From Escherichia coli (GTDB lineage Bacteria; Pseudomonadota; Gammaproteobacteria; Enterobacterales; Enterobacteriaceae): DNA of 64,000 bases. This document shows positions 10,669-14,513 of the stretch, in pieces (position 1 is the stretch's first letter; the number at the start of each line of letters is the position of its first letter). The position numbers and the translations under genes are program-made. Where the stretch lies: NCBI RefSeq assembly GCF_002854065.1, contig NZ_CP024147.1, one strand, 5' to 3'. Under the pieces are notes generated by a model. The model was not told the DNA's origin and did no database searches. It saw only the letters and a list, made by a program, of their open reading frames with translations.

Positions 10669-11013
10669 GTTTCATCTCCTTATTCCATATTCTCATTCTC
10701 CATAAACTTGCTATAAAAACATGATTAAAAAGTGATGATTACTATTTATAAAATAATGATTTTGTTATGAGCGAATAGCTATCAGCCACTTACACTAGTA
10801 CGTCATCTTGTCTATATACAGATTTGTAACTGTTGATATGTTTTACTTAAACACACCTCGTATTTCTTATAACACTTGTTTGGTAACTATTTTCAATACA
10901 AATCATATTTGTTAGTTCTTCATTAACACACTGCGAGTGTTTTGTTACTCCCCGCATATATTTTATTCTCTTGTTCGATTCTATTTTTCTTAATCGATCA
11001 TATAATTTTCTTG

Positions 11014-11193
11014 TTAGTCGGATTTACGAATCATGAGACTTATAATGGAAGGAATGAGACTAAGCGGCCAGGTTAAACCTGTAATTATTGCAGCAAACAA
11101 CCGATATGTTACTTTTTCTTCCGAGAAGATAAATATTAAAGTCGATGTCACAACCAGACCTATCAGGTAAGCTAACAGTAATTTATTGATCAC
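11014..11193 (-). CDS. Hypothetical small membrane protein (59 aa, two predicted helices)
   Basis: GTG start 5 nt after GGGAGG; translation MINKLLLAYLIGLVVTSTLIFIFSEEKVTYRLFAAIITGLTWPLSLIPSIISLMIRKSD; absent from the ORF track (below 60 aa). Confidence 0.45.
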   Translation of the reverse strand: MINKLLLAYLIGLVVTSTLIFIFSEEKVTYRLFAAIITGLTWPLSLIPSIISLMIRKSD

Positions 11194-11259
11194 TTTTACC
11201 TCCCCTTTCGATTTCTCTTTGAGCGGTCCTTTTAATCCAGGACCGCCTCATTATGAAAA

Positions 11260-12870
11260 CTATTTAATTCCCTCATCATTGATAAGGTTGGACATCTCTT
11301 TCAACATGAGAGTCATTGAAGCTTTCGACCAATTTAGCGGAATGATAGGGCTTGGCGCTTCATGCAAAGTTCCCGACTTGTGGATATAGTTATAGCTTTC
11401 GGGAAGTGCCATTTCTGGTACGCTCCTGCCATTTGCACCAATCATATTCTCGCCTGTTATTTGGGCCAATGATCTATTCATAAATTGTACTGAGTCATTC
11501 AAATACTCTTCTTTTCTTGATTCTTTATAAACAATTGCTGCTGATTTTGCATACCATGAGTCAAAAAACCATTCTGCTTCTGTTGATGGAATGAAGCTCT
11601 TTTCTCTTTTTGCATGCGAATTTTGATCGGTATCGGTTTTAATATCATTGAACCAAAAATTTGCCGACTGATAATTATCCTTCTCGTATCTTTTTATACC
11701 ATACGGACCTGCTAGTTTTTTAACTATTTTTAGAACTTGCTCTTTTCTTCTGGTGTTTATCTTTGAAAGATTTGCAGGATAAATAACATTAAGTAAAGCC
11801 GCATCGGCTTCTCTGTAATGTTTATCTTTTTCCAGATAACCTGGGGATTCTCCCCCTAAATCAAGCTGTAACGTTATTCTTTCATAACCTTTATCTATGA
11901 GGTGGTTCAACCTCGTTGTTGAAAGAGGTTCATCCAGTTCATTGGCTTTAGCTTCGCGTAGTAAATCAGAGACAAAAACAGATTCTTTCTTCGAGAGTAA
12001 GTTCGACAAACGTTCCAGTCCAGAGGTCACCAGTGCAACGGAAGATGTGTTTAATCGGGCATCTTCCTCCCACGCTCCGGAATCTTCCATAACATAGAAA
12101 TTGGCTTTATCCAGATAAGCAATCAGCAACGCAACCGATTTTAATCGGTCACCTTTTTGCCAATCTTCAGCGTTAATAGTACCAGTATTGATTGCTTGTA
12201 TAAGGAGATCAAGATAAAGACCTAACGCATCATTTTGTTTATGGTTCCACAGCTGCGGCTTGCCTTCTTCCTGCACATCTGCCATCACGGGGGAGTTGCT
12301 GTCAAATCGGATATGCACAGCATTCATTTGCCCGGGAATACCATCCAGTCGTTTTGGGTTGCTAATGATGTCCTGCATCCGCTTAATCTGGTCGGGCGTA
12401 GACATATAATCCCACAGGGTGAGCAGAACCTTTTTTGCGGCTACACTATTTCCCTGGTCTGATACTAATGCCATATAGCCCCATAAACTATCCCTCAGCC
12501 AGACAGCATCATAGTGGGTTTCTGCCGCTGTTTTGTCATCTTCGAAAGTAGAAGCAAGAATAAACGTTACCCAGGGTTTCTCCGTCAACGTTAACTTTCG
12601 TGTGTTTTCTGTTAATGTTAGCAATCCTTGAATTTCGTCTTTGGTATAGTGGCTCTTTATTTCATTTTGTAATTTGGCTGAGTGAATCAGAAGACGATAA
12701 TTAGGATACTTATCTGGATTTAACGATAAATAACTTTTATCTGTTGCTGCCCCCGTGGAATTAAGAATGTTAAATACAGATTCACTCGTCACTTCTGCCC
12801 CTGTCGCCTGGCATGTGCCGCACGAAAATATACCAGCGAGCAGAAGAGTTAATGCAGATTTCCCTTTCAT
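11260..12870 (-). CDS. Secreted or lipoprotein glycoside hydrolase family 15-like protein
   Basis: 536-aa ORF from MKGKSALTLLLAGIFSCGTCQA (signal peptide with Cys); GH15-type motifs (AVWLRDS; GAWEEDARLNTSSVALV). The track's N-terminal extension to 12939 reads into IS2 and is rejected. Confidence 0.6.
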   Translation of the reverse strand: MKGKSALTLLLAGIFSCGTCQATGAEVTSESVFNILNSTGAATDKSYLSLNPDKYPNYRLLIHSAKLQNEIKSHYTKDEIQGLLTLTENTRKLTLTEKPWVTFILASTFEDDKTAAETHYDAVWLRDSLWGYMALVSDQGNSVAAKKVLLTLWDYMSTPDQIKRMQDIISNPKRLDGIPGQMNAVHIRFDSNSPVMADVQEEGKPQLWNHKQNDALGLYLDLLIQAINTGTINAEDWQKGDRLKSVALLIAYLDKANFYVMEDSGAWEEDARLNTSSVALVTSGLERLSNLLSKKESVFVSDLLREAKANELDEPLSTTRLNHLIDKGYERITLQLDLGGESPGYLEKDKHYREADAALLNVIYPANLSKINTRRKEQVLKIVKKLAGPYGIKRYEKDNYQSANFWFNDIKTDTDQNSHAKREKSFIPSTEAEWFFDSWYAKSAAIVYKESRKEEYLNDSVQFMNRSLAQITGENMIGANGRSVPEMALPESYNYIHKSGTLHEAPSPIIPLNWSKASMTLMLKEMSNLINDEGIK

Positions 12871-13002
12871 AAAATATTCCATCAATCGTTTGTTAAAAGC
12901 GTAGATAACCATAGACTGGCCCCCTGAATCTCCAGACAACCAATATCACTTAAATAAGTGATAGTCTTAATACTAGTTTTTAGACTAGTCATTGGAGAAC
13001 AG

Positions 13003-13368
13003 ATGATTGATGTCTTAGGGCCGGAGAAACGCAGACGGCGTACCACACAGGAAAAGATCGCAATTGTTCAGCAGAGCTTTGAACCGGGGATGACGGTCTC
13101 CCTCGTTGCCCGGCAACATGGTGTAGCAGCCAGCCAGTTATTTCTCTGGCGTAAGCAATACCAGGAAGGAAGTCTTACTGCTGTCGCCGCCGGAGAACAG
13201 GTTGTTCCTGCCTCTGAACTTGCTGCCGCCATGAAGCAGATTAAAGAACTCCAGCGCCTGCTCGGCAAGAAAACGATGGAAAATGAACTCCTCAAAGAAG
13301 CCGTTGAATATGGACGGGCAAAAAAGTGGATAGCGCACGCGCCCTTATTGCCCGGGGATGGGGAGTAA
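13003..13368 (+). CDS. insC: IS2 protein InsC (OrfA)
   Basis: 121-aa [21 protein letters not shown]..., RBS GGAG upstream; the track ORF starts 15 codons earlier inside the terminal repeat. Confidence 0.95.
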
Positions 13369-14231
13369 GCTTAGTCAGCCGTTGTCTCCGGGTGTCGCGT
13401 GCGCAGTTGCACGTCATTCTCAGACGAACCGATGACTGGATGGATGGCCGCCGCAGTCGTCACACTGATGATACGGATGTGCTTCTCCGTATACACCATG
13501 TTATCGGAGAGCTGCCCACGTATGGTTATCGTCGGGTATGGGCGCTGCTTCGCAGACAGGCAGAACTTGATGGTATGCCTGCGATCAATGCCAAACGTGT
13601 TTACCGGATCATGCGCCAGAATGCGCTGTTGCTTGAGCGAAAACCTGCTGTACCGCCATCGAAACGGGCACATACAGGCAGAGTGGCCGTGAAAGAAAGC
13701 AATCAGCGATGGTGCTCTGACGGGTTCGAGTTCTGCTGTGATAACGGAGAGAGACTGCGTGTCACGTTCGCGCTGGACTGCTGTGATCGTGAGGCACTGC
13801 ACTGGGCGGTCACTACCGGCGGCTTCAACAGTGAAACAGTACAGGACGTCATGCTGGGAGCGGTGGAACGCCGCTTCGGCAACGATCTTCCGTCGTCTCC
13901 AGTGGAGTGGCTGACGGATAATGGTTCATGCTACCGGGCTAATGAAACACGCCAGTTCGCCCGGATGTTGGGACTTGAACCGAAGAACACGGCGGTGCGG
14001 AGTCCGGAGAGTAACGGAATAGCAGAGAGCTTCGTGAAAACGATAAAGCGTGACTACATCAGTATCATGCCCAAACCAGACGGGTTAACGGCAGCAAAGA
14101 ACCTTGCAGAGGCGTTCGAGCATTATAACGAATGGCATCCGCATAGTGCGCTGGGTTATCGCTCGCCACGGGAATATCTGCGGCAGCGGGCTTGTAATGG
14201 GTTAAGTGATAACAGATGTCTGGAAATATAG
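13326..14231 (+). CDS. insD: IS2 transposase InsD (OrfB), IS3 family
   Basis: 301-aa ORF overlapping insC in the -1 frame; DDE-type integrase core. Confidence 0.95.
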
Positions 14232-14439
14232 GGGCAAATCCAAACCACTTATTTAACAACTTGAAAATAAGGTATTTTACCTGGGTTGTTATAAAAGGAT
14301 TGCATTGCGTAAACGCTTTTTATTTACAAAATAATGGGGAAGTGTTACTGCGATTGCGAAAAGTCTGAACCGATTGAATTAAGATAATATAGAAAATCAG
14401 ATACAACAAAAATGGCAGGTTGATGAGGTGAAGATAAAT

Positions 14440-14513
14440 TGGAGCGGGCGAAGGGAATCGAACCCTCGTATAGAGCTTGGGAAGCTCTCGTTCTACCATT
14501 GAACTACGCCCGC
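14440..14513 (-). tRNA. glyU: tRNA-Gly (anticodon CCC)
   Basis: Minus-strand 74-nt sequence GCGGGCGTAGTTCAATGGTAGAACGAGAGCTTCCCAAGCTCTATACGAGGGTTCGATTCCCTTCGCCCGCTCCA; cloverleaf with CCC anticodon and encoded CCA. Confidence 0.97.

Follow-up and report, generated by a model that had tools for sequence, protein, structure and literature searches.

GhoT and OrtT of Escherichia coli are the closest described relatives of the protein considered here. Both are toxic when overproduced, causing membrane damage and a drop in ATP; GhoS does not neutralise OrtT, which is induced in the stringent response and under folate stress and has predicted transmembrane segments at residues 6-26 and 34-54 (PMC4344625). 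GhoT and GhoS make up a type V toxin-antitoxin system, and their ghoST locus is said to be well conserved among strains of E. coli (PMC7232551). A table in a review of ETT2 (E. coli type III secretion system 2), an SPI-1-type T3SS island, also lists, between ECs3734/eivF and ECs3736/pkgA, a 180-bp gene for an inner membrane protein, ECs3735, under the name ydcX (PMC3977695). We analysed this gene in a 64-kb stretch of E. coli DNA, referred to throughout, at its full length, as the window (Table 1). The name ydcX is the old name of ortT, and sequence comparison indicates that the gene is a third E. coli paralogue of ghoT and ortT; we read it as probably specifying an orphan two-helix inner-membrane toxin, held at low expression at the glyU-proximal edge of ETT2. 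The gene is already known, being an annotated and uncharacterised paralogue within a characterised toxin family, and it is not a discovery. The points that look forward are its pairing with a glycoside hydrolase gene and how cells tolerate a GhoT-like gene that is apparently unneutralised.

Table 1. Features at and around the gene (positions in the window)
Feature	Position	Strand	Description and basis
eivF (InvF-like AraC regulator), downstream neighbour	9919..10668	-	ECs3734 / z4198; NCBIfam InvF model, E = 1.2e-53
AT-rich spacer	10669..11013	-	345 nt, downstream of the toxin gene; promoter and terminator scan, alignment, Rfam
GhoT/OrtT-family small membrane protein gene	11014..11193	-	59 aa, GTG start; ECs3735 / WP_001301699.1; ORF, Pfam, RefSeq, dN/dS, polymorphism
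Shine-Dalgarno GGGGAGG	11199..11205	-	5-nt spacer (TAAAA) to the GTG; read from the sequence
GC-rich stem-loop	11221..11250	-	GAGGCGGTCC / GGACCGCTC; between GH15 stop codon and toxin ribosome-binding site; no U-tract after it
GH15-family glycoside hydrolase gene	11260..12870	-	536 aa; ECs3736/37 'pkgA'; Pfam PF00723, E = 3.3e-4; RefSeq name

The 59-codon frame and its coding status

The frame runs from a GTG at 11193-11191 to a stop codon at 11016-11014 and encodes the product MINKLLLAYLIGLVVTSTLIFIFSEEKVTYRLFAAIITGLTWPLSLIPSIISLMIRKSD. An earlier sequence-only reading of this DNA had described a GTG-initiated frame 5 nt after a purine-rich ribosome-binding site, placed between a GH15-like gene and an InvF-like regulator on the same strand, and the layout in Table 1 agrees with it on every count. 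The Shine-Dalgarno, which is unpaired in the predicted fold, is conserved in the other allele group of E. coli, where it reads GGGAGG. Many public assemblies carry a 78-aa gene call because a 1-nt indel, which shifts the upstream frame between E. coli alleles (GAAAGGGGAGG versus GTAAGGGAGG; 11194-11250 in the window, about 2500-2565 in loci L004-L006), brings an upstream ATG into frame, but only in one of the allele groups. We reject the 78-aa product as the true protein and regard its extension, which runs through the hairpin, as an annotation artefact. Preservation of the Shine-Dalgarno, alignment of the N-terminus with that of GhoT and disruption of the longer frame by the indel all support the GTG as the true start.

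Hydropathy bears out the two hydrophobic segments parted at EEK and the charged C-terminus that had been noticed by eye, with mean Kyte-Doolittle values of 2.54 for residues 5-23, -1.75 for the loop SEEKVTYR, 1.92 for residues 32-55 and -3.17 for the tail RKSD. AlphaFold2, run with the family alignment, returned a helical hairpin at a mean pLDDT of 84, with helices at residues 2-23, 28-40 and 46-58 and a kink at TWPLS.

The length of the frame alone is not significant, and one alternative to a gene is an untranslated frame that arose by chance in the AT-rich spacer: 25% of Markov-simulated 591-nt spacers of like composition hold an ORF of at least 59 aa, and the supplements of two EHEC Ribo-seq papers contain no entry for ECs3734-36 or Z4198-4200. 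Comparative data speak strongly against this alternative. The peptide matches Pfam PF10753 at E = 1.4e-11, and the frame is intact in samples from the 1325 genomes described below, with the Shine-Dalgarno and start codon conserved. At a locus whose GH15 protein is 99% identical to one named Escherichia albertii, and which we call E. albertii-type (L008), an intact 59-aa orthologue at 60% identity occupies the same synteny of GH15 gene, toxin gene, AraC regulator gene and sctC. Between the two orthologues, which have diverged to saturation at synonymous sites, dN/dS is 0.14 (pN 0.23, pS 0.69); the corresponding values for the neighbouring genes are 0.076 (GH15) and 0.061 (eivF). Within E. coli, six or seven of the seven or eight differences between allele groups are synonymous third-position changes, the sole amino acid change is I36V, and the chance of such a bias, with about 24% of sites synonymous, is by our arithmetic about 0.001. 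The sequence-only reading had proposed a genuine small membrane protein rather than a random frame, to be checked through homologous frames and synteny in related islands and through variation at synonymous sites. Because the orthologue is intact and the substitution pattern constrained, neither of the two comparative grounds that it gave for abandoning the proposal (no homologous frame, no coding constraint) applies, and the family match and the predicted hairpin favour the proposal as well. The 59-codon frame is thus, on comparative evidence, a real conserved gene for a predicted two-helix inner-membrane peptide; the comparative data effectively refute the chance-frame reading, to which we give almost no weight.

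Family membership, distribution and island context

The hmmscan match to PF10753 (Toxin_GhoT_OrtT, formerly DUF2566) scores 44.9 bits (the E-value above is the i-Evalue) and covers residues 4-46 against positions 3-46 of a 55-position model; all homologues carry the same precomputed assignment. Identity to K-12 GhoT is 39% over 46 aa and to OrtT 25%. An 18-sequence family alignment shows T41, W42 and P43 in every member and conserves Y9, R31, G39 and S45 at 90% or more; the window protein has them all, including the G-x-T-W-P-x-S motif of helix 2 and the equivalents of Y9 and R31. Its size (59 aa, where the family spans about 57-59), two transmembrane segments and short polar loop likewise fit the family. 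Phe38 of GhoT is needed for the toxicity of GhoT and OrtT, which F38R abolishes. The residue aligned with Phe38 is Ile36 in the window protein and Val in other E. coli alleles, and because this position is V, L, I or F across the family alignment, Phe38 is not family-defining. The family is small, with 13 matches among 1.84 billion representative proteins, and searches of NCBIfam, PADLOC, PHROGs and PDB sequences with the peptide returned nothing useful. The sequence-only reading was right in calling the product a small membrane protein and did not recognise it as related, by paralogy, to the toxins GhoT and OrtT.

That reading also called the gene unannotated, which is true only of its own track with a 60-aa cutoff; RefSeq and the ETT2 gene table already list it. 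Among 5426 complete E. coli genomes the 591-nt interval is present in 1327 and the ORF in 1325, always on the chromosome and at no less than 94.5% identity, and the RefSeq product name 'GhoT/OrtT family toxin' (e.g. WP_001301699.1) appears in all 60 of those sampled from the 1325. The O157:H7 allele is 100% identical to that of the window, and the sole match in the plasmid collection is a mislabelled chromosome. A scan of genome contigs yielded a single locus (L009), in which a 97% identical copy lies on a contig of a 'Collinsella sp.' MAG; the bin is most likely contaminated with E. coli. A third GhoT/OrtT paralogue is thus present in about one in four complete E. coli genomes, O157:H7 included. 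As a discovery this matters little, given that the gene stands in RefSeq and in the ETT2 tables and that its family is characterised. K-12 lacks the gene through an IS2-associated deletion that leaves only the GH15 fragments ygeQ and ygeP, which is probably why it has never been studied; studies of small proteins and toxin-antitoxin systems done in K-12 could not have covered it. In the literature searched we found no functional study of the ECs3735 paralogue, only its table entry.

The gene holds the expected ETT2 position, between eivF and the GH15 gene 'pkgA' near glyU (14440-14513), and XJ34 and four further E. coli genomes share this gene order. The window strain has lost nearly all of ETT2: we find yqeG (6015-7244), two IS1 copies, a truncated sctC/eivG of which only the first 315 codons remain, and then eivF, the toxin gene and the GH15 gene (regions 7436-9922 and 12958-14513); the toxin gene is intact even where the island has collapsed to a truncated sctC, eivF, itself and the GH15 gene. 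An IS2 copy lies between the GH15 gene and tRNA-Gly glyU, and the same contiguous junction is absent from the complete E. coli genomes in the collection.

On the far side of the toxin gene, the roughly 78 nt that precede the eivF start (10669-10746, minus strand) are near-identical between E. coli and the E. albertii-type locus, while the rest of the spacer is about 50% alike; unlike this block, the synonymous sites of eivF are heavily diverged. The block holds a seven-codon upstream frame, ATG GAG AAT GAG AAT ATG GAA TAA (10703-10680), whose stop codon abuts the GGAG of eivF, and it may serve that gene as a leader or in its regulation.

Expression, proposed action and alternatives

The 96-nt stretch that contains the stem-loop (11170-11265) folds at -25.9 kcal/mol (z = -4.2), and none of 200 shuffles folds as well. 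At the same position, a stem-loop with an unrelated sequence is present in every locus that we folded, namely the E. albertii-type locus and three Yersinia-type loci (L010, L011 and L020), and we infer a role as a 3' stabiliser or an attenuator. The stem and the GTG are just 27 nt apart in E. coli, so transcription of the gene must pass through the hairpin, whether it starts at the promoter of GH15 or within the 3' end of that gene, where a weak consensus promoter match lies at 11304-11275. We propose that the toxin would be made by read-through from the GH15 transcript or from this weak promoter, with the hairpin and the GTG start most likely holding its output low. Consensus promoter matches occur at chance frequency (7 found against 7.3 expected) and terminator-like sites are in excess (6 found against 1.6 expected). 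As none of these six sites lies on the coding strand in the interval from the toxin stop codon to eivF, transcripts may run on toward eivF. An Rfam search of 9800-13100 gave no family at or near its gathering score, with two sub-threshold chance matches.

By analogy with GhoT and OrtT, the peptide would insert into the inner membrane as a helical hairpin, with a first transmembrane segment at about residues 5-23, a polar SEEK loop and a second segment at about residues 32-55 that is kinked at T-W-P; in sufficient amount it might damage the membrane, lower ATP and slow growth. The window holds no GhoS homologue (the best tblastn match of K-12 GhoS has E = 0.024 over 34 aa), and the immediate neighbours are the GH15 gene and eivF rather than a GhoS gene (PF11080) in the same operon, which makes the gene an orphan like OrtT. 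Its mRNA is not free of MqsR sites: the ORF has three GCU sites, compared with none in K-12 ghoT and two in ortT. The case for toxicity is not secure, because Phe38 is replaced, the tail is RKSD, the N-terminus is shorter and the three GCU sites are present, and identities of only 39% and 25% to the tested toxins GhoT and OrtT also count against it. Since about a quarter of E. coli genomes keep an apparently unneutralised toxin gene intact, we expect either that its expression is tightly controlled or that its toxicity is low. The conserved GH15 linkage, for its part, hints at a different, non-toxin role.

The GH15 protein carries a lipoprotein-like signal, LLAGIFSC, and a PDB search with it found nothing. 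Its gene (for a protein of about 540 aa) adjoins the closest relatives of the toxin, those at about 40% identity or more, in six of the seven loci examined: the E. coli window, the E. albertii-type locus, L010, L011 (Y. enterocolitica), L020 (a 238-kb Yersinia contig) and L021. It lies directly upstream of the toxin gene in five of these six, the order in L021 being toxin then GH15 with an 856-nt gap. The other neighbours differ among the linked loci, and the two proteins diverge together, E. coli GH15 and toxin being 76% and 60% identical to their E. albertii-type counterparts and 58% and about 41% identical to those of the Yersinia type. More distant family members are found away from GH15 genes, as in K-12 ghoT and ortT, Serratia, Pluralibacter and another Yersinia paralogue; their contexts are a ghoS gene beside ghoT (K-12), a toxin gene followed by GhoS (Pluralibacter), orphan genes (K-12 ortT, Serratia, Yersinia) and an E. 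coli lambdoid prophage. We found no report of the GH15 linkage in the literature searched, and a DNA-pattern scan of metagenomes for the Yersinia-type motif found nothing. A 639-aa protein (P0085) that resembled a GH15-toxin fusion was rejected as a repeat artefact. The linkage is real, but it could be simple co-inheritance.

Several side observations concern the same genes. In the two Pluralibacter gergoviae-type loci (L015:4001-4496 and L016:4001-4496) the GhoT-like gene comes before ghoS, whereas in K-12 ghoS comes first, and the prophage member of PF10753 (P0115, 59 aa; L023:30-209) sits beside antiterminator-Q-like, Fic and Hok genes. One GH15 homologue at 65% identity (L025:1-7647) stands next to a block of SPI-1-type secretion genes (prgH, needle genes, prgK, orgA and SLT), together with ParA/ParB-like and SopD-like genes, so that this GH15 subfamily adjoins Inv/Mxi/Spa-type T3SS genes in at least three lineages (E. 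coli ETT2, the E. albertii-type locus and L025). The Yersinia-type locus L021 keeps an InvH gene beside its toxin-GH15 pair.

The linkage supplies a concrete hypothesis for what an 'orphan' toxin does, namely that the peptide is no stress toxin but the membrane partner of the secreted GH15 glycosidase in a conserved two-gene unit, anchoring or regulating the enzyme or helping to release it or its substrate. The adjacency itself, most often with GH15 directly upstream, the turnover of the flanking genes, the co-divergence of the pair and the lack of a GH15 neighbour in more distant family members would all be expected of such a unit. However, the six linked loci represent only about four or five lineages, so that the pattern is explained by two neighbouring genes having descended together; the close toxin relative at L024 has no GH15 gene visible in its 2.3-kb contig; and the GH15 homologues at L025 (65% identity) and at L026 and L027 (54%) have no GhoT-like ORF within 6 kb, which leads us to reject obligate coupling, given two GH15 homologues (65% and 54%) that lack a toxin gene. 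The enzyme, moreover, has its own signal peptide, and a stable hairpin between the genes argues against tight stoichiometric co-expression. We judge a partnership of this kind unlikely, and we consider rather improbable the more specific version in which the two genes form an old co-inherited Escherichia/Yersinia module whose peptide gates, anchors, releases or controls the enzyme through the shared transcript and its hairpin. If true, such a module would represent a function of the GhoT/OrtT fold outside toxin-antitoxin biology.

Two further readings supply the toxin with an antitoxin. In a split type V system, the mRNA would be checked in trans by the chromosomal GhoS endoribonuclease of ghoST, a locus whose broad conservation in E. 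coli (PMC7232551) suits the idea, as do the standing of GhoT as the closest characterised relative (39%) and the GhoS-paired family members in other genera (Pluralibacter). This arrangement seems very unlikely to us, as there is no GhoS gene adjacent to the toxin gene or anywhere in the 64-kb window, and OrtT, at 63% identity to GhoT, is not inactivated by GhoS (PMC4344625), which makes GhoS control of the more distant ETT2 paralogue less likely still; the three GCU sites, against none in ghoT, further indicate that the regulatory design of ghoT is not common to the ETT2 gene. Repression by a cis-antisense or adjacent small RNA, in the manner of a type I toxin, would suit a small hydrophobic membrane protein, since such toxins are commonly of type I, and could draw on a promoter-like match at 10725-10754 in the antisense direction, together with a weak terminator-like hairpin at 11069-11081. 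Promoter matches of this kind are nevertheless no commoner than chance, the Rfam search already described brought up no RNA family, and the spacer beside the 3' end of the ORF shows little conservation when E. coli is compared with the E. albertii-type locus, except in its eivF-proximal block. We know of no member of the GhoT/OrtT family that is a type I toxin, and we regard this possibility as extremely slight. An orphan inner-membrane toxin kept at low expression is the reading that we carry into the comparison below.

Comparison with known systems

Small hydrophobic helical peptides of the inner membrane also include phage holins and type I toxins such as Hok and TisB, which the peptide resembles by functional analogy only. 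A PHROG search gave no significant match (the best, E = 0.009, was to a family of unknown function), and there is no endolysin partner because GH15 is not a muramidase family; with no holin-family match, endolysin linkage or phage context, and with a GH15 protein that carries its own signal peptide, we see no evidence that it is a phage holin.

With GhoT (YjdO; type V GhoT/GhoS) the peptide shares PF10753, a similar length (59 against 57 aa), two transmembrane helices, an S-x-E-K loop and the motif G-x-T-W-P-x-S. Unlike GhoT, whose gene lies at the dcuS-lysU locus, it is encoded in an island behind a GH15 gene and has no adjacent ghoS; it contains three GCU sites where ghoT has none, Ile or Val in place of Phe38, an N-terminus shorter by two residues and a charged C-terminus (...MIRKSD) where GhoT ends in ...LLFSLF. 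As encoded here, the locus is not a type V GhoT/GhoS system. OrtT (YdcX) belongs to the same family and, like the ETT2 gene, which the ETT2 tables label 'ydcX', stands alone without a cognate antitoxin neighbour, but the two proteins share only 25% identity and their genes differ in locus and neighbours.

The nearest relatives are the GH15-linked E. albertii and Yersinia proteins (P0082/P0089, P0083, P0084, P0088 and P0090), at 60% and about 40-44% identity respectively. The Yersinia-type proteins differ in being 57 aa long and in lacking the charged tail, and no T3SS genes were seen in the Yersinia-type stretches examined, which are rich in IS elements and partly short contigs. Most of these loci share with the window the order of GH15 gene then toxin gene, those that were folded share a hairpin between the two, and the E. 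albertii-type locus shares the ETT2 synteny as well.
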